Notes: generated from the sequence alone by a model not told the origin. DNA of 64,000 nucleotides from an uncultured delta proteobacterium (GCA_963745025.1 CAVUWD010000010.1:160001-224000); one strand, 5' to 3'. Numbered from the stretch's first letter, positions 22,977 to 63,090 are shown. Program-made: numbers and translations.

Positions 22977-23278
22977 CGCTCGGCCGAAGGCGCCACGAGC
23001 AGGGATCGACGGAGTTGGATGCGCTCGGAGGCGCCCCGGAGCCTCAGCTTCGTTCGTGCGTTTGGCAAGTGACATCGTTCGAGCCCGAGCCTATGGCAAG
23101 CCCTACAGAGCAAGCGACAGGCGAATGTCCTCGAACGCAAGAAACAGGAATCTCGAATCTGCTTTCATGGGAACCGCACCAGGCCCGCTGCGAAGGCGTT
23201 GGTAGCACCTTTCGCCCAAGGCGCCATTCTCGGCTGCGAGAATGAGCTCGGGGAACGGTTCCCGGGAATGGTAAGCCG

Positions 23279-23686
23279 CTACTTTTCCTGGATCGTTTCC
23301 AGGTAAGCGGCAAGGGCGCTGATCTCGGCGCGGGCCCCGCCCGATCCATCCTTCCAGCGGAAGAGCCGTCCCCACACCGGCATTCGGCGGGATCCATGAG
23401 AGGCCACCATGGTTTCCCCATCGATGAAATCGATCACCCAACGCGTCTGGAACTCGCCGCCGTGCCTCTTCTGGATCAGCGTCAGGTCCGGCGGCGCCGT
23501 CTTCAGAGATGCCGCTGCCGGACCTCCACCTCTCGCGTCGACGCCGTGGCAGGTCGCGCAGTATGTTTCGAAGACTTCCTTGCCCCACGCCGTCGGTATC
23601 TTCCGCGTCTCGTACATCTCCATGGTGCCACTCGCGCCGAGCGCAATCATGGACAGAGTCGCTAACCATGGAAAAGCGATGCGCAT
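23279..23686 (-). CDS. Monoheme cytochrome c
   Basis: Signal peptide; CATCH; HG..MPVWG axial Met. Confidence 0.9.
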   Translation of the reverse strand: MRIAFPWLATLSMIALGASGTMEMYETRKIPTAWGKEVFETYCATCHGVDARGGGPAAASLKTAPPDLTLIQKRHGGEFQTRWVIDFIDGETMVASHGSRRMPVWGRLFRWKDGSGGARAEISALAAYLETIQEK

Positions 23687-23701
23687 AGCGCAGGGCGTCC
23701 T

Positions 23702-24181
23702 CTAGGTTTCTCGAACGAGCTCAACAGGCGCTGATGGCCGTGTGAGTATTCGGATCTCTTCGACGAGCCTCGTGCAGGCATCGAGCAGATTGCTGCGTGT
23801 GAGAATGCCAACGACCTTCCCTTTTTCGACGATCGGCACAGCTCCGATGCGCTCGCGGCGGATCAGTTGAGCCGCATGGTCGATCGTGCCATCCGGCGGA
23901 AGCGTCAGAACGTTTCGCGTCATCACTTCCTCGACGGGGATCTCCCCCGCGCTGGCCGAGGGTCGGCGGCGGCTTCTCCTGCGGCGTCCCAAGATGTTTA
24001 GAACAGATGGAAACGCGTCACGCAGGTCGCGGTCGGTGATGATGCCGACGAGTCGGCCTCGAACGACGACGGGGAGCTGGTTAATCCGCTGCTTCTCCAT
24101 GAGCTCGCGAGCATGAAGGATCGTGTCACGCGGCTTGATGCTCACGATCGGGCTGGTCATCCATTCTCGGACTCGAATCAT
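23702..24181 (-). CDS. CBS domain protein
   Basis: Tandem CBS (RINQLPVV..GIITDRD; IGAVPIV..GILTR); GAGGAG RBS. Confidence 0.92.
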   Translation of the reverse strand: MIRVREWMTSPIVSIKPRDTILHARELMEKQRINQLPVVVRGRLVGIITDRDLRDAFPSVLNILGRRRRSRRRPSASAGEIPVEEVMTRNVLTLPPDGTIDHAAQLIRRERIGAVPIVEKGKVVGILTRSNLLDACTRLVEEIRILTRPSAPVELVRET

Positions 24182-24210
24182 GTGGCTTGGTCTCCTCTTT
24201 GATTGCTGAC

Positions 24211-24226
24211 AGCAATTCGCTTGCCA
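24211..24226 (-). promoter_or_regulatory. sigma-54 motif upstream of the CBS-cytochrome c operon
   Basis: TGGCAAGCGAATTGCT. Confidence 0.7.
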
Positions 24227-24303
24227 CCCCTAGAACTCGACTTTCCCGTCGGTGCGCTCGTGCTAGTATTGCGATACGCGCTGCCGATCGAGGGCGCGTT
24301 CGT

Positions 24304-25353
24304 ATGTCTTTCCGTAGTCTGCGTCTGCGACGTGTCGGTAACGACGGTTTTCTGGTGGCTCGGTCTGAAGGAAAGCTGCATCTCAACCGCTCGGCCGAGG
24401 CCGCATCGCCATGGCGACTGCGGCGTCGGAAGCTTCGGCGACCGCGGCGCACGACCGGCAAGGAGCGCCGCTGGCTGAACCCTTACTGGGGGCCGTTCAA
24501 GTGGACGGAGCGGAACGTGGACCGCTTCGCTGCGCGGCACATCTATCCCCACCTGCTCGGCATCTGGCACACTTACTGTTGGCTGCTCGAGCGACGTTTC
24601 GAGGTGGCCGAGGCGACGATCGAGCCGCCCCTTTGGCCAAGCGATGCGGCGGATCTCCGGGTCCTGCTGCTGAGCGACATTCATGCTGGCGCCTTCCTCA
24701 AGCCGGAGGTGTTGGGCTCGCTTCTTGGCACGCTCATGGACCTGAATCCCGACGTCGTCGCCGTCGCCGGTGACATCGTCGAGGGCAAGACCGAGGATCT
24801 CGACGGTTTCCTGCCCGCGCTCTCACTACTCGCCCGAGCTCCCCTCGGTGCGTGGTACTGTCATGGGAACCACGATTACTACACATTCGCGCCCGAGCGC
24901 ATCCGCGCAGAGCTCGGCTCGATCGGCATCCGCACGCTCCGCAACGAATCGGTCATCCTCGGCCACCGCGGAGCGTGCGTGGTGGTCGGCGGCATCGACG
25001 ACCGCATCCTCGGCGGTCCCGATTGGGAGCAGCTCGTCGCGGTGAACGGCCCGCCCCATCTTCTGCTCGCGCACAACCCCGACGACTTCTACGAGGCCGA
25101 GCGGCGCCGGGTGGCGCTGGTGCTTTCCGGGCACACGCACGGCGGGCAGATCCGCTTCCCGAAGGGGCCGCCGCTCATCCGCCAGAGCAAGTTCTGTCTG
25201 GACGAGGGCCTCTACGTGCACGGAGAGACTCTGCTCGCGGTCTCGCGGGGCGTCGGCGCGGTGGGGCTGCCGTGGCGCGCCGGGGCCCATCCGGAAGCGA
25301 TGCTCCTCTGTGTCCGTGCGCCGCGCCGCTCAGGTGGCGCGCCCCAGCGGTAG
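24304..25353 (+). CDS. Metallophosphoesterase (YkuE-like)
   Basis: DIH, GD, GNHD, AHNPD and GHTHGGQ motifs; start uncertain. Confidence 0.88.
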   Translation: MSFRSLRLRRVGNDGFLVARSEGKLHLNRSAEAASPWRLRRRKLRRPRRTTGKERRWLNPYWGPFKWTERNVDRFAARHIYPHLLGIWHTYCWLLERRFEVAEATIEPPLWPSDAADLRVLLLSDIHAGAFLKPEVLGSLLGTLMDLNPDVVAVAGDIVEGKTEDLDGFLPALSLLARAPLGAWYCHGNHDYYTFAPERIRAELGSIGIRTLRNESVILGHRGACVVVGGIDDRILGGPDWEQLVAVNGPPHLLLAHNPDDFYEAERRRVALVLSGHTHGGQIRFPKGPPLIRQSKFCLDEGLYVHGETLLAVSRGVGAVGLPWRAGAHPEAMLLCVRAPRRSGGAPQR

Positions 25354-25358
25354 GCCCG

Positions 25359-25532: not shown

Positions 25533-25543
25533 CTTGGGCGAGC

Positions 25544-26273: not shown

Positions 26274-26298
26274 GGGCGATCGCACGGAAGCTCAAGGA

Positions 26299-26314
26299 TG
26301 CAAGCCACGAGCCA
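26299..26314 (-). promoter_or_regulatory. sigma-54 motif upstream of the PRT pseudogene
   Basis: TGGCTCGTGGCTTGCA. Confidence 0.55.
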
Positions 26315-26621
26315 TCGAGTGTCTGCTGTGGCAGGGCAGCGCGATCGGCTCGAGGCGGGTATCGCAGGTCTCGAAAATGCAAAGCTCGGCGACCACGCGT
26401 TCCCAAGGGTAGGAATGGCCGCGGCGGCGCCAGGCCTGGGTCCGCGAGGAACTCGACGCGGCGGTCGGCCAGAAACACGGAAATCCAGGTTCCCTCGTTC
26501 TCCTCCGTGTCCGGGACCCGCAGGCGCCAGGGGAAGATCGGCCCCGACGGTCTTCTCTCCGCACTCCTTCTTTGGCAAAAGAAGCTTGCCTTCGCATAGA
26601 GTAAAGAAGGGGCGGGTAGGA

Positions 26622-27523: not shown

Positions 27524-27534
27524 GAGAGCCGGAG

Positions 27535-34431: not shown

Positions 34432-34607
34432 GACTGTACCTCCCTTTCTCCGAGATATGTAAGCAAGGAACATACAACGCCCGCGGGATGGATCATTCCG
34501 GTTGCCAATTTACCATCGATGCGAAAGCAGGCATGCTGAATTCCCAGAACTGGGAGCCTCCGTTCTTAGACGGCTGCTGGCGCTCGCGAAATTCGATTGC
34601 GGCGGTT

Positions 34608-34623
34608 TGGCAAGCGGATTGCG
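34608..34623 (+). promoter_or_regulatory. sigma-54 motif upstream of the avidin gene
   Basis: TGGCAAGCGGATTGCG, nearly identical to the 24211 motif. Confidence 0.7.
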
Positions 34624-34661: not shown

Positions 34662-35081
34662 ATGGCGATCACGCTTTCGGGAACTTGGTACAACCAGCAC
34701 GGTTCGGAGCTTCGGATCCAAGTCGACCCCGAAGGGAAGATCGATGGCAGCTTTCGCAGCGGGGTGGGATTCCCCGAAGCCGGGGAGGAGTTTCCCGTCA
34801 CCGGGTTCGCCCAAGGCGACCTCTTCGGATTCACGGTCAGTTTCGGGAAGTACGATTCGGTCACGTCGTGGACCGGTCACTCTGGCGTGGAAGACGACGA
34901 GGAGGTTCTTTCCAGCCTCTGGCACATGAGCGTCGGGCTGCTGCCCGGAACCGCCTCCGAAGGTCAGCTCTGGAAGGGCGTCTGGGCCGGAGCCGACGTC
35001 TTTCGCCGCGAGCGGCGTGAAGCGCGTCGCGGCTCGCGAGTGGCCCCATCGCATCCGATGATCCCACCCGCGGGCTGCTGA
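34662..35081 (+). CDS. Avidin/streptavidin family protein without a signal peptide
   Basis: GTWYNQHGS, GSFRSGVG, GFTVSF, SVTSWTG, LWH and WKGVWAGADVF align with streptavidin GTWYNQLGS, GTYESAVG, GWTVAW, SATTWSG, QWL and WKSTLVGHDTF; GGAGG RBS. Confidence 0.92.
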   Translation: MAITLSGTWYNQHGSELRIQVDPEGKIDGSFRSGVGFPEAGEEFPVTGFAQGDLFGFTVSFGKYDSVTSWTGHSGVEDDEEVLSSLWHMSVGLLPGTASEGQLWKGVWAGADVFRRERREARRGSRVAPSHPMIPPAGC

Positions 35082-36348: not shown

Positions 36349-36536
36349 TCGAGGCAGTCCAAGACCGTTTCGTTCGAGTGGCAGTCGTAGCAGGCGGCTC
36401 GAAATCTCGCTTTGACCTCGGGTGGCGCGGAAAAGTCGCTCTCTACCGGGGGGTTGCTGCGCTCTACGCGCACGAGCTGCGCGATGACCAGAAAGGCGAT
36501 GCTGCCGATCCCGAGCATCCTGAGAACGCGTCGCAC
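36349..36536 (-). pseudogene. Truncated heme-binding (Haem_bd-type) cytochrome c domain gene
   Basis: IAQLVRVERSNPPV..AACYDCHSNET; homology stops where the opposite-strand DUF2279 gene ends. Confidence 0.75.
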
Positions 36537-36576
36537 TCGCGCCTCCTCTCCGAGACTCCGCCAATTGCCGTGGAAG

Positions 36577-37026
36577 CTACTTTTCCTGGATCGATCGGAT
36601 GTAGTCGGCGAGGGTTCGTGACTGAAGCAAGCCGGTATACTCGCGATAGAACTGTGTCTTCAGCTCCTCGTCGAAGACCGCGCCCCACACGGGCATCTCC
36701 CGCGGGCCGTGCTCCTTCACCCATCGTCGCCCGTCTATGAAGGAGAGAAGCTTGGGCTCGTCGAGCTTACCCCCGTCCTTCTTTGCGAGCTGGGTGAGAT
36801 CGGTTGGCCTGCGCTTGAGAGTCTCGGCGAGCGGGCCGTCGCCGCGGCACTGAAGGCCGTGGCACGAAGCACAATAGCGTCGGTAGAGAGCCTCGCCGCT
36901 CGGCGAGGTCGGTTCGCTCGAGCATCGCGCGAACGCGAGAAAGACGGCGCTGGCTAGCGAGAGAGACAACAAGAGCCGTGCCGACACGCGGTGGCCCGAC
37001 GCCCCTCCTTGCCCGTTCGCATCCAT
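36577..37026 (-). CDS. Monoheme cytochrome c (paralog of 23279-23686)
   Basis: CASCH; HGPREMPVWG; ends IQEK like its paralog. Confidence 0.9.
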   Translation of the reverse strand: MDANGQGGASGHRVSARLLLSLSLASAVFLAFARCSSEPTSPSGEALYRRYCASCHGLQCRGDGPLAETLKRRPTDLTQLAKKDGGKLDEPKLLSFIDGRRWVKEHGPREMPVWGAVFDEELKTQFYREYTGLLQSRTLADYIRSIQEK

Positions 37027-37032
37027 CGGGCG

Positions 37033-38646
<1,614 letters not shown>

Positions 38647-38745
38647 GGGACTTCCTCGGCGCCCGCGAACTCAGCGCTTCGTGAGTACCGCCAAGCGCAA
38701 TCGCGCCTCTCTCCTCGGCATCGTCATGACGGGGGCGGAGTCCAG

Positions 38746-39216
38746 CTACTTCTTGCCCTCGATCTGGACAGAAACCTTCTTCGGCGCGAGTTCCTTCGGA
38801 ACCGGCATGCTGATCTCGAGAACGCCCTTGTCGTAGCTCGCCTTGATCTTGTCGGCGTCGACCTTCCCGGGAAGCCGCATGCTGCGCTCGAAGCTGCCGT
38901 AAGCGATCTCCTCGTGTGTGTAGTCTCCCTCTTTCTTCTCCTCCTTGTGCTTGCGCTCGCCCTTCACGGTCAGCACGTCGCCGGTCACACTGACGTCGAC
39001 TTCTTTCGGGGAGACTCCCGGAAGATCCATGCGCACGACGAGGTTGTCGTTCCGCACCAAGCTCTCCATCGCGGGATGGCCTTTCCCCGCGAACGCCGTG
39101 CCTTCGAACGGTGTTCGCCCCATGAATCGGGCGAAGAGGTCATCGAGGTCGTGGTGCCACTCTTCGAGCTCCCGAAAGGGCTCTTCGTGACGTCTCCATG
39201 GGATCAATGAGCGCAT
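38746..39216 (-). CDS. Hsp20/alpha-crystallin small heat shock protein
   Basis: DLPGV, LTVKGER, YGSFERS and ASYDKGVLEI motifs; GGAGG RBS. Confidence 0.95.
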   Translation of the reverse strand: MRSLIPWRRHEEPFRELEEWHHDLDDLFARFMGRTPFEGTAFAGKGHPAMESLVRNDNLVVRMDLPGVSPKEVDVSVTGDVLTVKGERKHKEEKKEGDYTHEEIAYGSFERSMRLPGKVDADKIKASYDKGVLEISMPVPKELAPKKVSVQIEGKK

Positions 39217-39269
39217 GTTCTTTTCCTCCTTCTCTTCTCGGATGACCGAGACATCTAATCGCAGCGAGA

Positions 39270-39285
39270 TGCAATCCCCGGACCA
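39270..39285 (-). promoter_or_regulatory. sigma-54 motif upstream of the hsp20-groEL-cytochrome c operon
   Basis: TGGTCCGGGGATTGCA. Confidence 0.65.
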
Positions 39286-39443
39286 CGCGCTGCAGCGCGA
39301 TTCCGTGCGATCCGGCGTTCGATCCGAATTGCGAACATGAGAATTGCTGGCGTGGCTCTCCCGAAAACAGGAAGAACCGAATGGCTAACTTTCGCTTCAA
39401 GGGTAAGCTCCCGATGCACGGCCAACGTCCTCACACTTCACGT

Positions 39444-40394
39444 TCAGGCCGAGTTGCGGCGGTGCTCGAGGGGCCCGATGCCCGGCCGGTAGATATCTTC
39501 GCGAGTGAACGGAATCGCCGTGACGTTGGCCGCAAGCTTGGACGCGACGACCTGGTAGAGGCCGATCGCGCCTTCGGAGAAGAAGACCGAGGAGGCCGTG
39601 AGGTAGAGACGCCAGATTCGATAGGTCTTCTCCGGGACGAGCTGCAGGGCCTCGCTCCGGTGCTGCTCCAGTCGCTCGGCCCACTGGCGACAGGTCCGTG
39701 AGTAGTGTTCGCGTAGCTGCTCGACGTCGCGTATCTCCCAGTTCACATCCTCCATCACGGACAGGATGTGGCTTACGTGGGTGAGTTCCCCGTTCGGGAA
39801 CACGTAGCGGGTGATGAAGTCCCATTGCGGGGTCCACTTCCAGCGGCGTTCGTGTGTGATGCCATGGCTCAGGAACAGGCCGCCGGGCTTCAGGAGCTCG
39901 CGCACCTGAGAAAAATACGCAGGGTAGTTGGCGATTCCCACGTGCTCGATGATCCCCACCGCCGCGATCTTGTCGTAGAGATCCTGGCCGCGGATCTCGC
40001 GGTAGTCGCGGCACTCGACCTGGCAGACTCTTTCGAGGCCACGCTCGCGGATGCGGGCTCGCGCATAGGAGGCCTGCGACGGGCTGAGCGTCACCCCGTG
40101 TGCTTCGACGCCGTAGTGCTCGGCAGCCCACACGAGGAGACTTCCCCAACCGCAGCCGATGTCGAGCAAGCGCTCGCCGGGCTGAAGCCGGAGCTTGCGG
40201 CAGACGAGATCGAGCTTGTCGCACTGCGCCTCGTCCAGACCACCATCCGGACGGCGGTAGTAGGCGCAGGTGTAGACCATGGTGGGGCCGAGGAAGAGCT
40301 CGTAAAACTCGTTCGAGACGTCGTAGTGGTACTGGATCGCCTTGCGATCTCGCTCGATGTCCTTCTCTCGACTGCCCTTCAGAGCCGCGAACAT
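39444..40394 (-). CDS. CFA-synthase/TmpB-like SAM methyltransferase, catalytic domain only
   Basis: AIQYHYDVSNEFY, MVYTCAYY, LLDIGCGWG, YVFPNGEL, HY and RIWRLYL motifs; own GGAGG RBS. Confidence 0.9.
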   Translation of the reverse strand: MFAALKGSREKDIERDRKAIQYHYDVSNEFYELFLGPTMVYTCAYYRRPDGGLDEAQCDKLDLVCRKLRLQPGERLLDIGCGWGSLLVWAAEHYGVEAHGVTLSPSQASYARARIRERGLERVCQVECRDYREIRGQDLYDKIAAVGIIEHVGIANYPAYFSQVRELLKPGGLFLSHGITHERRWKWTPQWDFITRYVFPNGELTHVSHILSVMEDVNWEIRDVEQLREHYSRTCRQWAERLEQHRSEALQLVPEKTYRIWRLYLTASSVFFSEGAIGLYQVVASKLAANVTAIPFTREDIYRPGIGPLEHRRNSA

Positions 40395-40425
40395 TGCGCG
40401 TCCCTCCTAGCTCGGCATCCGTTCC

Positions 40426-41541: not shown

Positions 41542-41569
41542 GCGGAGGAGTGCCCTCCTTGGTCGTTAC

Positions 41570-41914
41570 CTAGACGTTGCCGAGCGCGCGCAGGATCGAC
41601 AGACGATCGCGGAGGCCGAGACGAATCGCCTCGATCTGGTTGGCGAGCCCGATCGCCACGAAGAGGTCTCCCTCGACGTCGAGATCCCCTTCGGCATACG
41701 CAACCGCGAAGCGCAACGTGTTCGGCCGCAACACGAGCGCGCGGAAGGTCTCTCGGCGCCGGAATACGAGCGTGAATGGCTCCCCGCTCGGGCCGAGATG
41801 GACGTGCGTCCCATCCCACAGGCGAACGGCGAAGCCAAACGGCACGTTTCCGAAGATACGGCGTAGAATCGCTGCCGCCGCCCCGGCCGATCCTGTCTCC
41901 CCTGCGATCTTCAT
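41570..41914 (-). CDS. Stand-alone N-terminal (lipid-binding) domain of a CFA-synthase-like enzyme
   Basis: FAVRLWDG..FTLVF..AYAEGDLDVEGDL, the typical CFA synthase N-domain. Confidence 0.8.
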   Translation of the reverse strand: MKIAGETGSAGAAAAILRRIFGNVPFGFAVRLWDGTHVHLGPSGEPFTLVFRRRETFRALVLRPNTLRFAVAYAEGDLDVEGDLFVAIGLANQIEAIRLGLRDRLSILRALGNV

Positions 41915-42013
41915 TCGCTCAAGAGCATCGCTGCCATGCGAACGCCGACACACCGATTGTCCGCCCGCGGCGGGCCGTTATCGAGGCGAAAAGGGCCCAT
42001 CCCATGCGAATCG

Positions 42014-42505: not shown

Positions 42506-42564
42506 TCCGATCTCCTCTTCGTAGAGCCCCAACGCGCAGGCTGGGCCAAGCCGCTCACAGAAAA

Positions 42565-42580
42565 TGCAAGGCCCGGGCCA
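42565..42580 (-). promoter_or_regulatory. sigma-54 motif (leftward of a divergent pair)
   Basis: TGGCCCGGGCCTTGCA. Confidence 0.65.
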
Positions 42581-42710
42581 ATGCGCAATGCTATGGGCCA
42601 GGCGACGAGTACTCGAATCGCTCGGAATCGGCCTTCCAACCATCGAGAAACCGCGTACTAGTTTCTCTCGGAATCGAGAACGGCCCTGGTCGAAGAGCCG
42701 TGCGCACTCG

Positions 42711-42726
42711 TGGCACGGAATTCGCT
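42711..42726 (+). promoter_or_regulatory. sigma-54 motif (rightward of a divergent pair)
   Basis: TGGCACGGAATTCGCT. Confidence 0.65.
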
Positions 42727-42753
42727 GCCTCATCCTGGCGAGGAAGGCTCAGC

Positions 42754-43290: not shown

Positions 43291-43320
43291 TACGGTCGCG
43301 CGAAAGCCGGTGACTTGGCG

Positions 43321-46113
<2,793 letters not shown>

Positions 46114-48914: not shown

Positions 48915-49345
48915 TCCTCCTCTCGGCCCGGCGTGACCGGAGCCTCGGCGGCGCCTGCGATCCCCGAGGCCGCCGTGGTTTCCTTGCGCTGCTTGCAGGC
49001 GAGGCAAAGGCGCGCGGCGGGAATCGCCCGCAACCGCTCGGCATCGATCGGCGCGCGGCACGACTCGCATGCGCCGTAGAGCCCCGCGGCGATCTTACCG
49101 AGCGCGTGTTGGATCTCCTCGAGCTCCGTTCTCTCGCGATCGTCGAGCCGCGCGAGCAACCGCTTCGCGGCCTCTTCCTGCGCGCGCTCTAGCCATTCGC
49201 TCTCCCGGTCCTCTTCGATCGCGTGGAGGTCCGCTTCGACGCCCTCGAAGACGTGGAAGAGCGTGCGCCGGGCCGCGATGAGCCGTGCGCGCAGCTCGTC
49301 GATCGTCCCACGGTCGAGTGAACGGCGGCGGTTGATCCGGTTCAC
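48911..49345 (-). CDS. TraR/DksA C4 zinc-finger protein
   Basis: Coiled coil then YGACESC..RL.AIP.ARLCLAC; GTGA overlaps at both ends. Confidence 0.88.
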   Translation of the reverse strand: MNRINRRRSLDRGTIDELRARLIAARRTLFHVFEGVEADLHAIEEDRESEWLERAQEEAAKRLLARLDDRERTELEEIQHALGKIAAGLYGACESCRAPIDAERLRAIPAARLCLACKQRKETTAASGIAGAAEAPVTPGREEE

Positions 49346-49722
49346 GAGTGATACCTCACTCGCGGCAGGGTGATGTGCAGCACGCCGCCGCACAAGGTCA
49401 CCACCCGTTCCTCGGGCGCGACGGGGAAGGGCAGGCACACCCGGCGGCGAAACGTGCCGCTGCGGACGGCGTCCCGATGCAGGCGACCGAAGCCCGGCTC
49501 GCGGATCTTGCCCTCGACGTGCACTTCGTCTTCGGATGCGAGCACTCTGACGTCGCCGACCTCCACCCCGGCAAAGAAGATGCGGATCTCCAACTCCTCG
49601 TCCGACTCGAGGACTTCGAACGGCGGCTCGAGCGCCTCCGCTTCCCCAGTGACGAGCTCGAGCGCCAACTCCAATTGCGAAGCGGCTTCGTCGCGGTCGT
49701 CCTCAAAAGTGTTGTTCGCCAT
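49342..49722 (-). CDS. Hsp20 family protein (divergent)
   Basis: PPFEV, AGV, VEG, GTFRRRVCLP and GGVLHITLP motifs. Confidence 0.8.
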   Translation of the reverse strand: MANNTFEDDRDEAASQLELALELVTGEAEALEPPFEVLESDEELEIRIFFAGVEVGDVRVLASEDEVHVEGKIREPGFGRLHRDAVRSGTFRRRVCLPFPVAPEERVVTLCGGVLHITLPRVRYHS

Positions 49723-49750: not shown

Positions 49751-49766
49751 AGCAGAAGCCGTGCCA
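49751..49766 (-). promoter_or_regulatory. sigma-54 motif upstream of the hsp20-dksA-MBL operon
   Basis: TGGCACGGCTTCTGCT. Confidence 0.7.
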
Positions 49767-49867
49767 CCGGTGATCGTCTTACCGCCGGCCGCCGTTGCCA
49801 ACAATGAGAAAGGCGACGCCGGCTCATGACCGAAGCCGGGAATTGCGGAGAATCTTCGTGCGCGGCC

Positions 49868-51232
49868 TCAGAGCGTAACGCTCAGCTCCCTCAGGATCCG
49901 CTGGTGCGACGTTTCGAGCGCCGCGCTGACGCGCACGGGATATGCCGGATCGACTGCGTCGAGGGCGCGCAAGCGGGCCGGCAGCTCGGCGATCCCGCGG
50001 CTCGCGCGGCTCCGAGCCGCCGACAGCGTCTCGCTCCCCGCCGCCGTGCGGCGGCCACCTCGCATGACCTGGACGAGGAGCGGGCGGCCGTCGAGCGCCT
50101 CGTCGTGGTGCGCGATCACGTCGCTCACCGCCTCGCCCTGCGTGAACGTGCGAAACACTTGCTTGCGCCCTGGCAGGATCGGCTTCTCGGGCGAGAGCTT
50201 GGTTCGTCCGATTCCGGCATACTCGACGAGCTTGTAAGCCATGTCGAGATACGGCGCATCATCCGAGACACCCATGTGGGTGCCCACCCCGAATCCAGCG
50301 ATGGGCGCGCCCTGCGCGACGAGCTTGGCGATCGTGTACTCGTCGAGGCTCGAGCTCGCGAAGAGGCTGACCCCCTGGAGGCCCGCTTCGTCGAGTATCC
50401 GGCGCGCCGCCTTCGACAGCGCATCGAGATCCCCGGAATCGAGGCGTAGCGCCGAGATGCGGAAGCGCTCGCCCATCTCGCGCGCGAGCGCTACGACCTT
50501 CCGTACCGCCGCGAGCGTGTCGTACGTGTCGACGAGCAGCACCGTCTCGGGATAGAGGCGCACGAACGCTCGGAAGGCTTCGATCTCGTTCGCATGGGCC
50601 TGGACGTAGCTGTGCGCCATCGTTCCCGCGACGGGAATTCCATAGGTCAGTCCCGCCAGCACATTCGACGTCGAGTGGACGCCCGCTACGTAGAAGGCCC
50701 GGGCCGCCTTCATTCCCGCGTCGGTTCCGTGCATTCGCCGAACTCCGAAATCGACGACCGTGCGACCGTTCGCGGCGGTCACCACCCGAGCCGCCTTGGA
50801 CGCTGCGACCGTCTGGAAGTGCAGCTGATTCATGAGAAACGTCTCGGCGAGCTGCGCCTCGGGAAGCGGAGCGACGACCTCGACGAGGGGCTCGCCGCCG
50901 AACACGACCGTTCCCTCGGGCACGGCGAACACGTCTCCGCGGAATCGGAGACGCGCCAGACGCTCGAGAAAGCGGTCCGAGAACAGTCCGATGCGCGACA
51001 GCGCGGCGATCGCCTCCACCGGGAACGACAACGTCTCGAGATAGCGCAGGACATCATCGAGGCCGCAAGCGACGAGATAGTTGCGATGCTCCGGCAGACG
51101 ACGGACGAAGAGATCGAAGACCGACTCTTCCTCCATCCCCTCCTCGAAGTAGGCCTGGAGCATCGTCAGCTCGTAGAGGTCCGTCAGCAAGGCGGCGTTC
51201 GAATCGTTCACCCATCCGCTTGGACCGTTCAC
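49868..51232 (-). CDS. pncB: Nicotinate phosphoribosyltransferase
   Basis: LLTDLYELTM, DFGVRR, GTMAHS, LVDTYD, RLDSGD and FGVGT motifs. Confidence 0.95.
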   Translation of the reverse strand: MNGPSGWVNDSNAALLTDLYELTMLQAYFEEGMEEESVFDLFVRRLPEHRNYLVACGLDDVLRYLETLSFPVEAIAALSRIGLFSDRFLERLARLRFRGDVFAVPEGTVVFGGEPLVEVVAPLPEAQLAETFLMNQLHFQTVAASKAARVVTAANGRTVVDFGVRRMHGTDAGMKAARAFYVAGVHSTSNVLAGLTYGIPVAGTMAHSYVQAHANEIEAFRAFVRLYPETVLLVDTYDTLAAVRKVVALAREMGERFRISALRLDSGDLDALSKAARRILDEAGLQGVSLFASSSLDEYTIAKLVAQGAPIAGFGVGTHMGVSDDAPYLDMAYKLVEYAGIGRTKLSPEKPILPGRKQVFRTFTQGEAVSDVIAHHDEALDGRPLLVQVMRGGRRTAAGSETLSAARSRASRGIAELPARLRALDAVDPAYPVRVSAALETSHQRILRELSVTL

Positions 51233-52245: not shown

Positions 52246-52261
52246 AGCCAGCAGCGTGCCA
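52246..52261 (-). promoter_or_regulatory. sigma-54 motif upstream of prs-pncB
   Basis: TGGCACGCTGCTGGCT. Confidence 0.55.
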
Positions 52262-52444
52262 AACATGGTCCTGATGTGCATTTCGTGCCGGCGCCACAAT
52301 GCTACGGATCCCATGATCGTCCCCGCACGCGCTTTTTGCAATTCTGGGAATCCCCGGTAGCCGTCTTCGCAGAATCGAGAGAGGCCGGGGTCATGAGAAT
52401 TCGCGCCGAGGTCGCCTCGCGAGGCTAGAAGTCTCGGGCCTAGC

Positions 52445-52459: not shown

Positions 52460-52927
52460 GTGCGGATTCGGCGAATCCTCGCTCCGACGGACTTTTCGAC
52501 GATCTCGCTCGCGGCGGTCGATTATGCGTTAGGCCTAGCGCGCGACATTGGGGCGGAACTCGCGCTCCTCTACGTGGAAGACATGGCGTACGCGCTTCCT
52601 GCCGAACTCGTCTCTACGGAAACGGGGACCCGCGTGATGGAACAGGCGCATCGGGCGGCGCAGCATCAGCTGAAACTTCTCGCCAACCGGGTTCGCAAGC
52701 CCGGGCTCAAAGTTCATGCCCTGATTCTCGCCGGACCGGCGGCCACGCGCATCGTCGAGGCGGCATCGAAGCTCCGCGCCGACTGGATCGTGATGGGCAC
52801 GCACGGTCGCACGGGCATGGCGCGCGCATACCTCGGCAGCATTGCCGAGCGCGTCGTCCGGCAGGCCACGTGCCCCGTGCTGATGGTGCCAAGCCGCAAG
52901 GCGCCGGCTCGCCGCGCCCGCCGTTAA
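52460..52927 (+). CDS. Universal stress protein
   Basis: RILAPTDFS; IVMGTHGRTG..LGSIAERVVR..CPVL. Confidence 0.92.
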   Translation: MRIRRILAPTDFSTISLAAVDYALGLARDIGAELALLYVEDMAYALPAELVSTETGTRVMEQAHRAAQHQLKLLANRVRKPGLKVHALILAGPAATRIVEAASKLRADWIVMGTHGRTGMARAYLGSIAERVVRQATCPVLMVPSRKAPARRARR

Positions 52928-53808: not shown

Positions 53809-53810
53809 CG

Positions 53811-54071
53811 TTACCCCTTCCCCGCGCGTGCCGCGAGATACGCGACGCAGCGTTCGAGGCTCGAAAGCTTCGGGTAGTCCTCCTCCGGAATGTCGACGCC
53901 GAGCGCCTCGTGGACGCGGACGAAGAAGTTGAGGAGGTCGACCGAGTCGAGGTCGAGCTGGTCCCGCCAATCGACTTTCGGGTCGATCGACGCGGGGTCG
54001 ACTTCCGGGGCGATCGTGCGAAGCACCCGCAGGACCGTTTCACGGATCCCTTGCTCGTAGGCCGCGCTCAC
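53811..54071 (-). CDS. Acyl carrier protein
   Basis: LDLDSVD phosphopantetheine site; GVDIPEEDY; GTGA overlap with the E2 stop. Confidence 0.9.
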   Translation of the reverse strand: MSAAYEQGIRETVLRVLRTIAPEVDPASIDPKVDWRDQLDLDSVDLLNFFVRVHEALGVDIPEEDYPKLSSLERCVAYLAARAGKG

Positions 54072-55363
54072 AGCTTCTCCGGCTCCTGCAACAGCGCGTC
54101 GATCGCGGCGAGGAAGCGACCCCCGCGATGGCCGTCGCTCACGCGGTGGTCGGCAGAAAGCGTCGCCGAGATCACCGGACGGACGCCGAGCATGCCGCCC
54201 GAGGCCCACGGTCGCTCCACGACCTTGCCGAAGCCGACGAGCGCAACCTGCGGCGGATGGATGACACCGAACACGCTTTCCACGCCCTGGTCCCCGAGGT
54301 TGGTCACCGTGATCGTCGCGTCGGCGATCTCGGAGCTTCGCAACACGCCCGTCCGTGCTCGGTTGGTGACGTCCAGAATTTCCTTCATGAGCTCGCCGAG
54401 CGGCTTGCGATCTGCATCGTGCAGGGCAGGGGCCACGAGCCCCCCTTTCCGGAGCGAGATCGCCATGCCGACGTGGACGTGCTCGCTCGGGCGAAACTCG
54501 CCGTCGATCCAGAAGCCGTTCATCTCGGGTGCTGCGCGCGCGGCGAGCGCCACCGCTTTGACGAGCAGCAGCGAATGTAGCAGCCGCTCGGTGACCGGCC
54601 GTTTGCGGTTCTCCTCGGCGAGCCACGCGAGCGCCCGCCCGAGGTCGATGTGCGTCTCGAGATAATAGTGCGGGATCTCCCGCTTGGCGCGCGTCATGGC
54701 CGTGGCAATCGCCCGGCGCATCGCGGCCGTGCGCTCCTCGACGGTTTTCTGCGCCGCTCGCTCGGCCGGAGCGGGAGGCGCCGCGGGCGGGGGGACCGCC
54801 GGCAGCGCCGCTTCCCGAGCTGCCGCTGGCTTCGGAACGCCGCGAGCGGCCGCAGTATTCTCAACATCGGCCACGCGGATGACGTTCCCTTCGCCAGCAA
54901 TCACCGTGGCGAGATCGACGTTGAGCTCTGCGGCACGACGCCGCGCGAGCGGCGAGACCCGCGGCCGTGCGCCGCCCCCCGGCGGCTCGACGCCCGGAGG
55001 TGTTCGCGGTGCCCGTGCGGGCGCTGGCGGGGCCGGGCTCGGGGGGGGCGGCGCTTTCTCGCGAGGAATCGGCTCGCGCGGTGCCGGTGGCGCAGCCTTT
55101 GCGGGCGTCTCGGCAGCGGCCGCCTGGCCGTCTCGTCCGATCATCGCCATCACCGCGCCGACGGCGAGCTCCGTCCCCGGCTCGGCGAGGAGTGACTCGA
55201 TCACTCCATCCTCGAACACCTCGATCTCGATCAGCCCCTTGTCCGTCTCGACGAGGGCGATGATGTCGCCGCGGCGCACGCGGTCGCCGGGCTTCACCAT
55301 CCACTCGACGAGGGTGCCGTAGTCCATGTCGGCACCGAGCGAGGGCATGAGGAACTCAGCCAT
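54068..55363 (-). CDS. pdhC: 2-oxoacid dehydrogenase E2 (dihydrolipoamide acyltransferase)
   Basis: VETDK lipoyl site, SPLARR binding domain and DHRVSDG catalytic motif. Confidence 0.92.
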
Positions 55364-56378
55364 GCTCTCCCATTACGCGAATGGCCGCAGCGACGATGCG
55401 CGGCACCTGGGGCAGCGCCGCCTCCTCGAGATGCTTGGCGTAGGGCATCGGCACTTCGGCCGAGCAGACTCGCTCGACCGGCGCGTCGAGCTCGTAGAAC
55501 GCGCTCTCGACGATGCGTGCGGTGATTTCGGCGGAAAGGCTGCCGCTCTTCCATCCTTCGTCGACGATGACGGCGCGGTGCGTGCGCGACACCGATTGCA
55601 CGATCGGCTCGACGTCGAGCGGCCGTAGCGTTCGCAGGTCGATCACCTCGGCCTCGATCCCTTCGAGAGCGAGCTCCTCCGCCGCCTTGAGCGTCTTCGG
55701 CAGCGTTCCGCCGTAAGTGATGAGGCTTACGTCCGTTCCCGACCGGCGGATCGCCGCGTGGTCGATTTCGACGGCCCCGGCATCGGCGGCGAGCTCTCCC
55801 TCCATCGCGTACAGCGTGCCGTGCTCGAAAATCAGCACCGGATCGGGGTTCTCGAGCGCCGTCCAGAGCATGCCGCGCGCGTCCTCGAGCGTCGCCGGCG
55901 CGAGCACGCGGATCCCCGGGATGTGCGCGTACCAGCCCTCGAGGCTGTGCGAGTGCTGCGCCGCGAGCTGGCGGCCCGCGCCCGTCGTCATGCGGATCAC
56001 GAGCGGGATGTTGAACTGTCCGCCCGACATGTGGAGGATCGTCGCGGCGTTGTTCACGATCTGGTCGAGGGCGAGCAGGCTGAAGTTCACGGTCATGATC
56101 TCGACGATCGGACGCATGCCGCCGAGCGCCGCGCCGATCCCGGCCCCGACGAACGCCGACTCCGAGAGCGGCGTGTCGCGGATGCGCTCGGGGCCGAACT
56201 CGTCGAGCAGCCCCTTGCTGACGGCGAAGCAGCCGCCGTAGCGGCCCACGTCTTCACCCATGAGAAACACCCGTGGATCGCGCTCGAGGGCCTCGCGAAT
56301 GGCCGCGCGCATTGCCTCGCGATAGGTGACCCGCACTTTGGCGGCGGCTGCGGGCACCGCTCCACCGAGGGCGCTCAT
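55356..56378 (-). CDS. pdhB: Pyruvate dehydrogenase E1 beta
   Basis: MGEDV, DTPLSE, AAQHS and DLRTLRPLD motifs. Confidence 0.92.
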
Positions 56379-57366
56379 CGCGGCGACACCTCCGAGTAGA
56401 CGAAGCGTTCCAATTCTTCGACGGGCTCGAGGCTCCCTGCCTCGGCGAAGGCCACCGCGTCGGCTACCTCGGCGGCGATCTCCCCTTCCATGCGCTCGAG
56501 ATCCGCTTCCGCGATGAGGTCCGCTTTCTTCAGGGTTGCGGCCAGCGCTGGGATCGGATCCCGCTTCTTCCACTCCTCGACCTCGCGCTTGTCACGGTAG
56601 AGCTCGGGGTCGAACATCGAGTGCGCGCGGAAGCGATAGGTGCGGAGCTCGAGAAAGCACGGGCCGCCGCCCGCGCGCGCCCCTTCCACCGCGCGGCGCG
56701 CGGCACGCTCGACCGCGAGCACGTCCATGCCGTCGACGGGCCAGGCCGGCATTTCGAACGTCGCCGCTTTGAGCACCAGGTCGGTCTCGGACTCCGAGCG
56801 GCCGAGCGCCGTGCCCATGGCGTAGAGGTTGTTCTCGCAGAGGAACAAGACCGGCAGGTCCCAGAGCGCGGCGAGATTCATCGATTCGTGAAACTCGCCT
56901 TCCGCGACGGCGCCCTCGCCGAAGAAGCACGCGGTCACGCGCGAACGCCCCTGCATCTTGTCGGCGAGCGCGAGGCCGACGGCGAGCGGTAGCCCGCCGC
57001 CGACGATGGCGTTGCCGCCGTAGAAGCGCGTCGCCTTGTCGAAGAGGTGCATCGAGCCGCCGCGGCCGCGACTGCAACCTTCGAGCTTGCCGTACATCTC
57101 CGCCATGATCGAGCGCGCCGACAAGCCGCGCGCCAGCGCATGACCGTGCTCCCGATAGGTAGCGACGACGGCATCCTCGGGCGCGAGAGCCTGCATGACA
57201 CCGACCGCGACGGCCTCTTCCCCGATGTAGACGTGGAGGAAGCCGCGGATCTTCGTCGCGCTGTAGAGCTCGACGCACTTCTCCTCGAAGCGGCGGATGC
57301 GCAGCATCTCGCGAAGCAGCCGAAGCGCATGATCGCGCGGCGGCAGCGTGGGCGTGGTCTCGAGAG

Positions 57367-57370
<4 letters not shown>
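56375..57370 (-). CDS. pdhA: Pyruvate dehydrogenase E1 alpha
   Basis: [31 protein letters not shown] and TYRFRAHS motifs. Confidence 0.93.
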
Positions 57371-59140
<1,770 letters not shown>

Positions 59141-59153
59141 GTCGCGAAAAGTC

Positions 59154-59169
59154 CGCAAGAAGCGTGCCC
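59154..59169 (-). promoter_or_regulatory. sigma-54 motif upstream of acsA-pdhABC-ACP
   Basis: GGGCACGCTTCTTGCG. Confidence 0.65.
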
Positions 59170-59473
59170 TTAAACTTATAGCCTTTCGAGTAGGGCAGTG
59201 TTCCCGAAACTTGGAATGGAAATTTTCCTCCTTTCCGCTTTCGAGAACGAACTATCATTGAAACGCAGGCATCAGAGAAAGCATAAAGTGACGTTGATGA
59301 GATACTCTAGCGACGAAGATTTGACGCAGGAAACCGAAGTGTCGAATGACAGAGATTAGTCCACTACTAATATTGTTCTTAAAATTCAAGTGCTTGACGC
59401 CAGTTTGCCTTGATTCGGTTGATGTATTTAACCATCTAAAATTTATGGCATGAGTCTTGATAAGTCCTAGTCC

Positions 59474-61198: not shown

Positions 61199-61300
61199 CG
61201 ACTCGGCGCTCGCCACGGCAAAGAGAACCTTCAGCGAGTTTTCAAGATTTGCGAGCCTCAGAGGTAGAGCAACGACGCGCTTCGTGATTACCCAGACGCA

Positions 61301-61843
61301 ATGCTTCTCGAGATGTGCCAGGTCCTCTACTGCTTCGGCCCGGCGTACGCGGCCGACGTGGCGCCCGTCCTGGTTCGCGGCATGTTCGAGCCGCTCGCCC
61401 GGCCGCTCGACGCCGGCCGTAGCTTTCGCGGTCGACCGATCTTCGGCAGCCACAAGACTTGGCGGGGTCTCGTCTTCGGACTCATCGCGGGGAGCATCGT
61501 GTTCCAGCTCCAAGCCCTCTTCTACGAGCTCGGATGGCTGCGCGAGCTCGCGCTAGTCGACTATCACCGCCAACCCGTGCTGCCGGGCTTGCTGATGGGG
61601 TTCGGGGCGATCGCGGGCGACTCGATCAAATCGTTCTTCAAGCGACAGGTGGGGATCGCGCCGGGCTCGAGCTGGCTCGTCTTCGATCAGCTCGATTTCT
61701 TCTTCGGGGCGTCGCTGCTCCTGTCGATGGTGCAGCCCCTGCCGCTCCTCCCGTGGATAGCCGTGCTGCCGATCGTATTCGTGTGCGACGTGATCGTGGC
61801 GGCGCTCGCCTACACGTGTGGGCTGAAGGACGCGTGGATCTGA
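61301..61843 (+). CDS. CDP-archaeol synthase (CarS)-like membrane cytidylyltransferase
   Basis: PAY.A...PV, PLD.G..F.G..IFG..KTWRG, GD..KSFFKR..G and DQLD motifs. Confidence 0.85.
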   Translation: MLLEMCQVLYCFGPAYAADVAPVLVRGMFEPLARPLDAGRSFRGRPIFGSHKTWRGLVFGLIAGSIVFQLQALFYELGWLRELALVDYHRQPVLPGLLMGFGAIAGDSIKSFFKRQVGIAPGSSWLVFDQLDFFFGASLLLSMVQPLPLLPWIAVLPIVFVCDVIVAALAYTCGLKDAWI

Positions 61844-61861
61844 GGCGTCTCTTCGCTCACC

Positions 61862-62746
61862 CTACGCGACGCGCCTGCTACCCGCCTCGAGCCAAAGAGC
61901 CTTCAGGTCTTTCGGCAGCTGGCTGAATATGTCCCAAGCCTCGCCTTCTTTGCCGGTGGCGCTGCCGAGCAATCGCTGCAGACCACGGAAGACGACGCGC
62001 ACGGCTTTTTCCGCCTGCGCATCGCTCTCCAAGCCGGCCCTCCGGCGCACCCGGCCGATGAATTCCTCCCTGTGAATTCGTCGAACGCGACGGTTGGGCC
62101 GCTCCTGTTCTAGCCAGAGTGGCTTCACCTGCGCGGGAAGCTGCGCCGCGACGTCGGCGGCCTCTTTGGGCGTGAGGCGATCCCGTAGCTCCTGGAGTAC
62201 CGCGAATGCGATGCCCTCCGCTTGCCGGTGCTCGCAACCCAGACGCTGCGCGATCTCGCGGATGAGTGAGGGCTTTCGCGCCCTCGCTCCGCCGCGTCGC
62301 GCCGCGCGGAACGCATCGCCGGCCTCGCTAGCCGCGGCGCACTTGAGCGCCCGGACGACGTCCTCGCGAGAAATGATGCCGACGACCTCCTCGCCCATCA
62401 TGACCGGGAAGCTCTTGAATCGCGTGTCGGCCATCATGCGAATCACCCGCGTGAGCGGCGTGTGGCTGCGGACCGTGATCGGCTCGCGGGTCATCACGGC
62501 CGAAACCTGTTGGCGTAGCATCTGCGGGTACGATTGCACGTCCGAGCGCCGCTCGAAGCCGAAAGCCTTGAGCAGGTCGAGCTTGGTGAGCACGCCGACG
62601 AGGCGACCTTCCTCCACCACGGGAATGCAGTTGAACTCGTTCTCGTCGAAAATCTCTTGGGCTTTCGCGAGCGTGGTACGACTGTCGATCGTGACGACCG
62701 GAAAGGTCATGAAGTCGTCCGCCCGGTACTCGAGGAACTCGAACAT
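61862..62746 (-). CDS. CBS domain protein fused to a DUF2267 domain
   Basis: MFEFLEYRADDFMT tandem CBS, then LRDRL..EA..VAAQLP and QLPKDLKALW; GGAGG RBS. Confidence 0.85.
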   Translation of the reverse strand: MFEFLEYRADDFMTFPVVTIDSRTTLAKAQEIFDENEFNCIPVVEEGRLVGVLTKLDLLKAFGFERRSDVQSYPQMLRQQVSAVMTREPITVRSHTPLTRVIRMMADTRFKSFPVMMGEEVVGIISREDVVRALKCAAASEAGDAFRAARRGGARARKPSLIREIAQRLGCEHRQAEGIAFAVLQELRDRLTPKEAADVAAQLPAQVKPLWLEQERPNRRVRRIHREEFIGRVRRRAGLESDAQAEKAVRVVFRGLQRLLGSATGKEGEAWDIFSQLPKDLKALWLEAGSRRVA

Positions 62747-62770
62747 GGCGCGGCCTCCCGCTAAGGAGCG

Positions 62771-62786
62771 AGCACAGACCATGCCG
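62771..62786 (-). promoter_or_regulatory. sigma-54 motif upstream of CBS-DUF2267
   Basis: CGGCATGGTCTGTGCT. Confidence 0.6.
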
Positions 62787-63090
62787 AGCGGCGTGCGATA
62801 GGAGCGCCGGGTTGATGGCCAGGTTTTCCCGCGGTCGGGAAAGGGGAAGTCATCGAATTCTCGAATGGAGGAACGTCTTCAGCTCGTTGCGGTCCTTTGG
62901 CCGACCTGCCTCGGGCGCTCACGATCTGCCGGCTGGCACGTTCCTTGGGACGCTTGCGCTCCATGGCGACGCGCCATAACGATTTCATCCGACGTTGCAT
63001 TAGCCTCGGGCAACTCGAAAGGAGAGTTCTGTAAAGCAGCCCCTGACATCGACCGATCTGCAACCGCCGCCCGCCTGTCGCCCCCCGGCG

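Follow-up and report, generated by a model that had tools for sequence, protein, structure and literature searches.

A paired 16-bp dyad predicted to act as a sigma-54 enhancer, and its candidate NtrC-family activator, in an uncultured delta proteobacterium

What is the role of a palindrome that recurs in pairs, at one fixed distance, along a single stretch of a genome? The question is raised by 64,000 nucleotides of DNA from an uncultured delta proteobacterium (GCA_963745025.1 CAVUWD010000010.1:160001-224000, here called the window, and C10:160001-224000 in the contig coordinates used below), whose source assembly (G000) comprises 5.65 Mb in 20 contigs with ~67% G+C. From the sequence of the window, nine pairs of the element TTCYC-N6-GRGAA had been proposed as a candidate enhancer, or upstream activator sequence, of a sigma-54 activator. 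Analysis of the whole assembly and of 40 relatives indicates that the element is a 16-bp dyad (hereafter the box), that its pairs are very probably sigma-54 enhancers, and that one NtrC-family response regulator encoded on another contig is the candidate activator. Gene starts in the assembly and the window are our own rough calls, and functions were assigned by Pfam and NCBIfam. Box distances are given from start to start, and the gap between boxes and promoter from the proximal box to the −24 element.

The nine pairs were all read, like the single box at 20536, at the positions and with the sequences originally described (Table 1), and the proposed spacing of 30-32 bp was recovered by measurement (32, 32, 31, 30, 31, 32, 31, 31 and 32 bp for the nine pairs in order). 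Several boxes match the consensus on one half only, as had been pointed out, for example those at 26368 (GTCTCGAAAATGCAAA), 39328 (ATTGCGAACATGAGAA) and 49827 (TGACCGAAGCCGGGAA). The exact pattern occurs three times in the window against 0.23 expected, a number reached by none of 100 shuffles; one of the three matches (at 12059) is unpaired. With at least 16 of the 20 specified letters required, five pairs at 31 bp and four at 32 bp were found in the window, with 0-3 at each other spacing from 16 to 60 bp, while first-order shuffles of the window gave a mean of 0.32 such pairs (maximum 5 in 200 shuffles). Genome-wide, boxes with at least nine of ten letters pair at 31 bp (8) and 32 bp (7), with 0-2 pairs at any other spacing from 10 to 69 bp, and 11 of these 15 near-perfect pairs lie outside the window that supplied the consensus. 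Furthermore, pairs with at most two mismatches in 20 letters number 17 in the genome, against none for a reversed-pattern control. Under the loosest pair criterion, 140 rows were counted at 30-33 bp versus 86-105 at control spacings. Significance against background, on which the proposal had been made to depend, is thus seen as an excess in the exact-pattern count, in the spacing histogram of the genome and in the window shuffles.

Twenty-eight seed pairs, in which the six central positions had been left free, gave a position weight matrix (PWM) for the box. From it a purine at position 6 and a pyrimidine at position 11 emerged, neither of which was present in the originally proposed consensus or in the seed; in the final set of 79 boxes, R6 is found in 76 and Y11 in 70. 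The site was therefore refined to the 16-bp dyad TTCYCR-N4-YGRGAA. The source genome holds 39 strong sites, which are concentrated at C10:147-240 kb (14 sites) and C13:225-261 kb (10 sites), and one triple box set is found at C16:433006/433038. In 40 strong pairs the spacing is 31 bp (22), 32 bp (15), 30 bp (2) or 33 bp (1), and 31-32 bp is three helical turns. The two half-sites vary independently: at mirrored positions 4/13, 28 Watson-Crick pairs were counted versus 33 expected by independence, and at positions 6/11, 37 versus 35.5. Since the arms do not covary, the pattern is that of a site for a dimeric protein and not of a hairpin.

Coupling to sigma-54 promoters was examined with a strict TGGCAC-N5-TTGC-type consensus, searched within 170 bp of each site. 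A plain consensus scan of the window yielded −24/−12 motifs on the minus strand at 20461, 24211, 26299, 39270, 42565, 49751, 52246 and 59154, and on the plus strand at 34608 and 42711, each with a ribosome-binding site and start codon within the next 25-45 bp. Strict motifs accompany seven of the nine window pairs; counted together with a variant motif at 62934, they bear out the proposal that eight of the nine pairs stand ~30-75 bp upstream of a sigma-54 motif (gaps of 28-73 bp). In the genome as a whole, 20 of the 39 strong sites have a strict promoter within range, a 14-fold enrichment over random places (mean 1.4, maximum 5 in 200 trials). Moreover, the 29 box-to-promoter gaps, which range from 19 to 109 bp, cluster at 19, 28-33, 38-42, 50-54, 60 and 73 bp; among nine periods tried, phasing gave a Rayleigh p of ~3e-4 at 10-10.5 bp and <1e-4 at 11-11.5 bp, compared with 0.37 at 8 bp. 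A gap periodicity of ~10.5-11.5 bp fits a face-of-helix coupling of activator and polymerase. Finally, when 4-mer dyads upstream of 151 consensus promoters were counted without a seed, TCTC-N6-GAGA ranked first (7 versus 0.85 expected), with a p of 2.7e-5 that is borderline after correction over the 2816 dyads. The location of pairs between divergent genes also held up, in a larger number than the two originally counted (at least five, by rough gene calls); pair 42634 alone among the nine has clear sigma-54 promoters on both sides.

The arrangement is kept in relatives. Each of the four hsp20 orthologues, from three genera (G001, G006, G003 and G007), retains a pair at 31-32 bp plus a sigma-54 promoter, in flanks that have diverged to 49% mean column identity, and the gap from pair to promoter is 42 bp in G000, G001 and G006 alike. 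For two CBS genes, the pair with its promoter is kept in four of the six best orthologous loci. Across genera the box centre and flanks vary and the outer letters are kept. The ~31-bp spacing, whose loss from orthologous promoters the original prediction had named as evidence against itself, is thus retained in other genera. The excess over background, the conserved spacing and the position 28-73 bp before −24/−12 promoters together support the candidate sigma-54 enhancer as it was predicted.

The activator had been predicted to be encoded outside the window, and the sole PF00158 match of the contig is indeed at C10:103644, 56 kb before the window start at 160001. Among the 23 PF00158 loci of the genome, only C13:259589-261022, on another contig, has strong pairs within 1 kb; for every other locus, the nearest strong pair is at least 11 kb away or the contig has none. 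Its product is a 478-amino-acid REC-AAA+-HTH protein (Pfam domains REC, Sigma54_activat, AAA_lid_14 and HTH_8) in which a receiver aspartate in its usual acidic pocket, a GSFTGA loop, the Walker A and B motifs and a Fis-type HTH are all recognisable. No named NCBIfam equivalog is reached: AtoC comes closest (452 bits versus a cutoff of 714), with NtrC at 422 bits versus 558.6. One pair (C13:261032-261077) occupies the 59 bp that separate the preceding CBS gene from the regulator start, and a second, with the promoter AGGCATACCACTTGCG, lies just past the regulator end, before COX2/COX1 genes. The pair upstream of the regulator gene shows a spacing of 30 bp in four genomes of two genera (C13:261032-261077; L029:1443, L030:1403 and L031:1292) and is without a sigma-54 promoter; it may serve auto-regulation by another mode.

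Of the 40 relatives, 23 have a full-length orthologue of this regulator, 60-95% identical where no paralogue exceeds 48%, and two more have a contig-truncated copy. In G001, G002 and G006 there are pairs on both sides of the orthologue. In 20 relatives, the 10-kb flanks of the orthologue (386 kb in total) yielded, with the trained matrix, 26 pairs at 30-33 bp versus 3-8 at seven control spacing sets, and these 26 fall in 14 of the 20 loci; in G023, G020 and G040, the only strict match or one of few sits 4-7 kb away from the orthologue. All orthologues that were read share one HTH recognition helix, LSSLYRK. To judge from position and co-conservation, the C13:259589-261022 protein is a quite likely binder of the boxes.

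What the regulator might respond to is suggested by its neighbours. A haem sensor kinase, of either protoglobin or FixL-PAS type, stands beside the regulator orthologue in 16 of the 23 relatives. In 11 of them a protoglobin domain is found within 1.5 kb (as a full Protoglobin-HisKA-HATPase by Pfam in seven of the 11), and in five further ones (G008, G040, G011, G029 and G019) the best match of the respective genome to a PAS protein of the window lies within 7.5 kb, with a PAS-HisKA-HATPase gene directly adjoining the orthologue in G008 and G040. The regulator of the source genome is probably paired with that FixL-type PAS kinase of the window, which reads as two overlapping frames. The first, 18831-19865, contains a FixL-type haem PAS that aligns end to end with PDB 1D06 (E 3.5e-27) and also matches 1DP6; its NCBIfam FixL match, at 116.8 bits, is under the model's 850-bit cutoff. 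The second, 17257-18912, is a GAF-PAS-HisKA-HATPase protein with an NtrB-like H box. The frame 18831-19865 keeps the His of an ...HD.Y... segment, which we take to be the haem ligand of FixL. Over the PAS domains, the window kinase is 38% identical to the kinase adjoining the activator orthologue in G040. Its orthologue in G001 is one 903-amino-acid frame with one TAG inside, and the two-frame reading in the window is either a frameshift or an assembly error. The orthologous kinase locus of G001 bears two boxes 30 bp apart and the promoter TGGCAGGGTTCTTGCG; in both G000 and G001, ~600 nt separate the sigma-54 promoter from the first start codon of the kinase. Oxygen is on the whole the probable signal.

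The genes behind the boxes were then considered. They make up ~30 operons and read as a low-oxygen or dormancy-type programme. Outside the window they include many USP, CBS and BON proteins, a third Hsp20 with GroEL, two haem-copper oxidase sets, several c-type cytochromes and a DsrO/DsrP-like pair. A Sec-type clade II NosZ (861 bits versus a cutoff of 625) follows the triple box, HypA/HypB are next to a NiFe hydrogenase gene, and RtcB and RtcA, a Lon-like protease, a DksA-like protein, a PfkB kinase and a MacB-type exporter complete the set. This content points to respiration and survival at low oxygen as the theme of the regulon. A strong pair (PWM scores 18.1 and 13.7) with a poor sigma-54-like motif also lies directly upstream of kdpA at C11:599783, and the potassium pump may belong to the regulon.

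These elements can be assembled into one model. Paired TTCYCR-N4-YGRGAA boxes would be the upstream activator sequence of one NtrC-family response regulator, for which the C13 protein is the candidate. Two of its dimers, one on each box, would occupy the same face of the DNA 60-140 bp before the −24/−12 promoters, and the phosphorylated regulator would assemble an active ring that drives open-complex formation by sigma-54 RNA polymerase. Phosphorylation would come from a haem-based sensor kinase, in the source genome the window protein of 17257-19865 and in sister genera the adjoining protoglobin kinase. With the kinase gene itself behind a box and a sigma-54 promoter, the path from haem kinase through regulator to boxes would form a self-reinforcing loop. 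Binding, the partners of the phosphorelay, the oxygen signal and the sign of the response are what we infer here from sequence, and the explanation as a whole (upstream activator sequence, C13 regulator, haem kinase input and regulon) is held with reasonable confidence. Its novelty would lie in the binding site and large predicted regulon of an uncharacterised NtrC-family member with a plausible haem input; the type of switch is itself textbook.

Several observations weigh against this explanation. For 19 of the 39 strong sites no strict sigma-54 consensus lies within 170 bp, and for ~12 not even a weak sigma-54 motif; pair 23227 and the pair immediately before the regulator gene are among these. 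Strong pairs also occur at gene 3′ ends with no recognisable promoter: pair 23227, for which neither the strict nor the weak scan recognised a sigma-54 promoter nearby, stands immediately after the 3′ end of a cytochrome c gene and precedes a YkuD-type gene by 150-250 bp, and the pair at C14:77169 is between convergent genes. Conversely, the sigma-54 promoter TGGCAAGCGAATTGCT at 24211-24226 (−), which precedes a CBS-cytochrome c operon, lacks a box in the 200 bp upstream of it; pair 23227 is ~950 bp downstream of this promoter, just beyond the end of its operon, and activation from such a downstream enhancer is possible. A hybrid kinase gene at 14111-16099 (REC-PAS-HisKA-HATPase-REC) has its own sigma-54 promoter, TGGCATAGCCAATGCT (16276-16308), whose −24 element is abutted by a single good box, TTCCTCGAAATCAGAA (PWM 12.5), with no pair there; this box is too close for activation and might act in repression. 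Among relatives, strict matches are absent from 12 of the 25 that bear an orthologue (23 full-length and two truncated), and G021 has three good strict pairs, yet its best regulator homologue is 47% identical with a different HTH. No protoglobin gene was found in the source assembly, whose completeness is 92.65%, and the window kinase, read in two frames, does not share a contig with the regulator. Furthermore, the box and promoter PWMs were trained on sites later scored, so that PWM-based counts (box lists, weak promoters and pairs around orthologues) are partly circular; the exact-pattern, ≥9/10-letter, ≤2-mismatch, strict-promoter, window-shuffle and unseeded-dyad counts are free of this. 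Lastly, the entire case for sites, activator and input is built on sequence.

Among the alternatives, the one that survives best accepts the regulator and the sites and replaces oxygen by NO, CO, redox or energy charge, the last through CBS/USP proteins; it is improbable but deserves to be taken seriously. Haem PAS and globin sensors bind several gases, and the window kinase has a GAF and a second PAS domain in addition; a CBS gene, moreover, precedes the regulator in G000, G001 and G006. Such a signal would have to be reconciled with the terminal oxidases, NosZ and hydrogenase maturation genes of the regulon and with the presence of two unrelated haem-sensor types beside orthologues of the same regulator in different lineages, as well as with the hypoxia response of the closest studied system, as given in the available portion of its report (PMC11841059).

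Somewhat less probable, and unlikely in our estimate, is that the boxes are the sigma-54 enhancer of another activator, either one of the other ~22 or one outside the assembly, the C13 regulator being merely a member of the regulon. The absence of any other PF00158 locus less than 11 kb from a strong pair speaks against this, as do the enrichment of pairs at the orthologue in 14 of 20 relatives' loci, the recognition helix that is invariant wherever the motif is conserved, and a pair beside the best regulator homologue even in one Phycisphaerales genome. What the idea does account for is G021, with its three strict pairs and no close C13 orthologue, and the pair upstream of the C13 gene, whose lack of a sigma-54 promoter and unusual conserved 30-bp spacing could mark a target and not the binder.

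A non-regulatory repeat, whether REP-like, a hairpin or a terminator remnant, is very hard to reconcile with arms that do not covary, outer letters that are kept while centre and flanks vary, a spacing that is fixed and promoter-phased, and a promoter association 14-fold over random, even though a few pairs do lie at gene 3′ ends and the loose pattern picks up true hairpin repeats in other phyla (101 of the 120 loci classified among the matches listed). That the pattern arose by chance, through the fitting by eye of a degenerate consensus, as the boxes matching on one half and the high background of the loosest criterion could suggest, is refuted by the peaks of the spacing histogram at 31/32 bp, with controlled excesses in four tests and 11 of 15 near-perfect pairs outside the window leaving it next to no probability.

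The preferred reading, an enhancer bound by the C13 regulator with haem input, was compared with known systems. NtrC-family activators bind tandem palindromes about three helical turns apart. At the enteric glnAp2 promoter, two high-affinity NtrC dyads lie ~three turns apart, ~100-140 bp upstream of the −24/−12 promoter, and serve as an oligomerisation platform; the pair-of-dyads architecture with a REC-AAA+-HTH activator is shared here, whereas the site sequence, the signal (nitrogen there) and the regulon differ. DosR/DevR of Mycobacterium tuberculosis, a NarL/LuxR-type regulator that works with the housekeeping sigma factor, serves low-oxygen survival under haem kinase input. The present system resembles it in the predicted haem kinase input and in the abundance of USP and small heat-shock proteins among its genes; it differs in its AAA+ activator and −24/−12 promoters, and on these two grounds a DosR-type regulon was rejected. 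With rhizobial FixL, window frame 18831-19865 aligns over the whole haem PAS; unlike FixL, its presumed partner is an NtrC-type activator and not FixJ, and the kinase has further GAF and PAS domains as well as an NtrB-like H box.

The closest studied system, likened by architecture, gene content and type of input, would be NmpR of Myxococcus xanthus. According to the available portion of its report, NmpR is an NtrC-like regulator at sigma-54 promoters with input from a protoglobin haem kinase (PMC11841059). Its sites are two 15-bp dyads, GCGCA-N5-TGCGC, with 14-15 nt between them, that is, ~29-30 bp centre to centre; its regulon of seven promoters comprises CBS (the first gene of the regulator operon), USP and a high-affinity oxidase and includes control of its own signalling genes; and the NmpRSTU phosphorelay employs a hybrid kinase, NmpS, and a double-receiver protein, NmpT (PMC11841059). 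As far as that portion allows the comparison, the likeness extends from the NtrC-like regulator, the sigma-54 promoters and the two dyads at a fixed distance to the gene content: here, too, the regulator stands after a CBS gene and before oxidase genes, the regulon contains CBS, USP and oxidase genes, and signalling genes have their own boxes. Protoglobin kinases adjoin the regulator orthologues in 11 relatives (not G000). On the same basis the differences are the site, TTCYCR-N4-YGRGAA; the size, ~39 sites versus seven promoters; and the sensor, as G000 has no protoglobin match and apparently uses a FixL-type PAS kinase while the protoglobin kinase of relatives directly adjoins the regulator. 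A search of G000 for the NmpR site showed no spacing peak at 29-30 bp, and the NmpR site was rejected for the window promoters, the best match being 8 of 10 letters at two of the 11 promoters and at most 7 at nine. With a different DNA site and no protoglobin in G000, the system is best called NmpR-like in its working, which falls short of membership.

How far the box extends beyond this lineage was approached by a pattern scan of 185,579 species' genomes, with a loose pattern in which R6/Y11 were not fixed; 120 loci were classified among the matches listed. Pairs of the R6/Y11 type occupy at least 19 loci among these matches, in records labelled Planctomycetota, Zetaproteobacteria, Magnetococcales, Nitrospinota, Deltaproteobacteria, Veillonellaceae and others. 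A strict sigma-54 promoter lies within 200 bp at 9 of these 19 loci, compared with 5 of the 101 of the other class, again among the matches listed; dominated by a hairpin repeat, these matches give no picture of the true spread of the box. The repeat consists of TTCCCCC-WW-GGGGGAA hairpin pairs 15-16 bp apart (L075, L080, L091 and about 100 others among the matches listed, in Bacteroidales, Rikenellaceae and Clostridia) with no sigma-54 motif nearby; it recurs many times per genome in some Bacteroidales metagenome-assembled genomes from peat and fen (at least 20 loci in one record set) and is unrelated to the box. Planctomycete genomes hold a regulator homologue of 47-52% identity with a near-identical HTH, and in one Phycisphaerales genome a pair lies 0.84 kb upstream of the best such homologue; the occurrence in Phycisphaerales and planctomycetes is a lead and not a result. 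For Planctomycetia, the available portion of a 2025 survey describes USP genes as enriched behind predicted sigma-54 promoters (PMC12316311). It is a tentative and rather doubtful thought that the LSSLYRK regulator and its paired enhancer form an ancient cross-phylum low-oxygen sigma-54 module, a functional counterpart of DosR and FNR/FixK in which the DNA site was kept and the haem sensor swapped; such a module would take in Planctomycetota and Acidobacteriota, with Zetaproteobacteria, Nitrospinota and Magnetococcales as further possible members. In the literature, no description of the box or of sigma-54 in this lineage was found; the available portion of a Desulfovibrio vulgaris regulome (PMC4641369) shows motifs as figure logos only.

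If the model holds, an uncultured lineage gains a testable circuit, made up of a 16-bp site, ~39 targets, a candidate activator and a candidate haem sensor. It predicts genes that are jointly switched on at oxygen shortage, among which those for nitrous oxide reductase and hydrogenase maturation bear on greenhouse-gas turnover. It would also provide a second, differently wired example beside NmpR (2025), the sole studied sigma-54-driven oxygen regulon, and the apparent exchange of protoglobin for FixL-PAS beside one conserved regulator would be a natural experiment on the swapping of sensors onto a fixed output.

Table 1. Boxes, sigma-54 promoters and associated genes in the window (distances between boxes from start to start; distances from promoter to pair from the −24 element to the proximal box)
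Feature	Position	Strand	Details
Candidate sensor kinase (Pfam)	17257..19865	-	two overlapping frames
Sigma-54 promoter TGGCAGGATTTTTGCG	20461..20476	-	FixL-type kinase gene
Single box CTCTCAGGTCTGAGAA	20536..20551		59 bp upstream of promoter 20461; PWM 16.8
Box pair TTCTCGGCTGCGAGAA / TTCCCGGGAATGGTAA	23227..23274		32 bp apart
Sigma-54 promoter TGGCTCGTGGCTTGCA	26299..26314	-	53 bp from pair 26368
Box pair	26368..26415		32 bp apart
Box pair	34510..34556		31 bp apart
Sigma-54 promoter TGGCAAGCGGATTGCG	34608..34623	+	51 bp from pair 34510; avidin-family gene 34662-35081 (+)
Sigma-54 promoter TGGTCCGGGGATTGCA	39270..39285	-	42 bp from pair 39328; hsp20 38746-39216, groEL 37033-38646, cytochrome c gene 36577-37026 (all -)
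Box pair	39328..39373		30 bp apart; weak third box starts at 39391
Sigma-54 promoter TGGCCCGGGCCTTGCA	42565..42580	-	53 bp from pair 42634; CBS-domain gene ending at 42014 (-)
Box pair	42634..42680		31 bp apart; common to two divergent sigma-54 promoters
Sigma-54 promoter TGGCACGGAATTCGCT	42711..42726	+	30 bp from pair 42634; CBS 42757-43290, acyl-AMP ligase/acyltransferase 43315-46113, malic enzyme, adenosine kinase (all +)
Sigma-54 promoter TGGCACGGCTTCTGCT	49751..49766	-	28 bp from pair 49795; hsp20-family gene 49342-49722 (-)
Box pair	49795..49842		32 bp apart
Sigma-54 promoter TGGCACGCTGCTGGCT	52246..52261	-	73 bp from pair 52335; phosphoribosyl pyrophosphate (PRPP) synthetase (to 51288), nicotinate phosphoribosyltransferase 49868-51232 (both -)
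Box pair	52335..52381		31 bp apart; between PRPP synthetase gene (-) and USP gene 52460-52927 (+)
Sigma-54 promoter GGGCACGCTTCTTGCG	59154..59169	-	31 bp from pair 59201; acyl-CoA synthetase-like (to 57398), 2-oxoacid dehydrogenase E1 alpha, E1 beta and E2 (54068-57370) (all -)
Box pair	59201..59247		31 bp apart
Box pair TTCCCGCGGTCGGGAA / TTCTCGAATGGAGGAA	62826..62873		32 bp apart
Sigma-54-like motif, variant −12, TGGCACGTTCCTTGGG	62934..62949	+	60 bp from pair 62826; upstream of ABC-transporter genes (+)

Some features of these loci are of interest in themselves. The variant −12 element of the last row, TTGG or TTGT in place of TTGC (TGGCACG-N4-TTGG), occurs next to five pairs (window 62934, C6:212633, C10:236762, C13:228020 and C16:66266, positions approximate) and represents either a local promoter variant or non-functional sites. 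The ATG at ~26273, after promoter 26299, opens a 198-amino-acid reading frame without a Pfam family match. The YkuD-type gene at 22281-23075 (−) is apparently split, with a signal-peptide-like start in the 22281-23075 frame and the catalytic domain in the 22355-22966 frame.

Two kinds of repeated sequence were met in the course of the genome scan. The 'pairs' at C2:78463 and C11:422747 are reverse-complement copies of one repeated segment, with an IS200-type transposase gene near the C11 copy, and may not be independent sites. A dispersed repeat, CTACCGGCTACCGGAA ... TTGCCGGAAGCCGGAA, which scores weakly with the box matrix and is found at C5:7423, C10:259659, C16:348407, C19:131912, C20:59489 and other places, is probably a REP-like element unrelated to the enhancer.

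Contigs from four RNA runs, 92-99% alike, aligned to 36500-44000, where they cover hsp20 and leave the boxes uncovered. Those of X15 and X16, from two studies, end at 39279 and 39287, that is, at the sigma-54 promoter 39270; as such contigs are uninformative on starts, strand and level, and a DNA control run is absent, these ends allow no conclusion on the promoter. In the RNA contigs of close relatives (X15 and X17), 37039 is joined directly to 38417, so that most of groEL, which separates hsp20 from the cytochrome c gene, is missing; the hsp20-groEL operon seems to differ here between strains.

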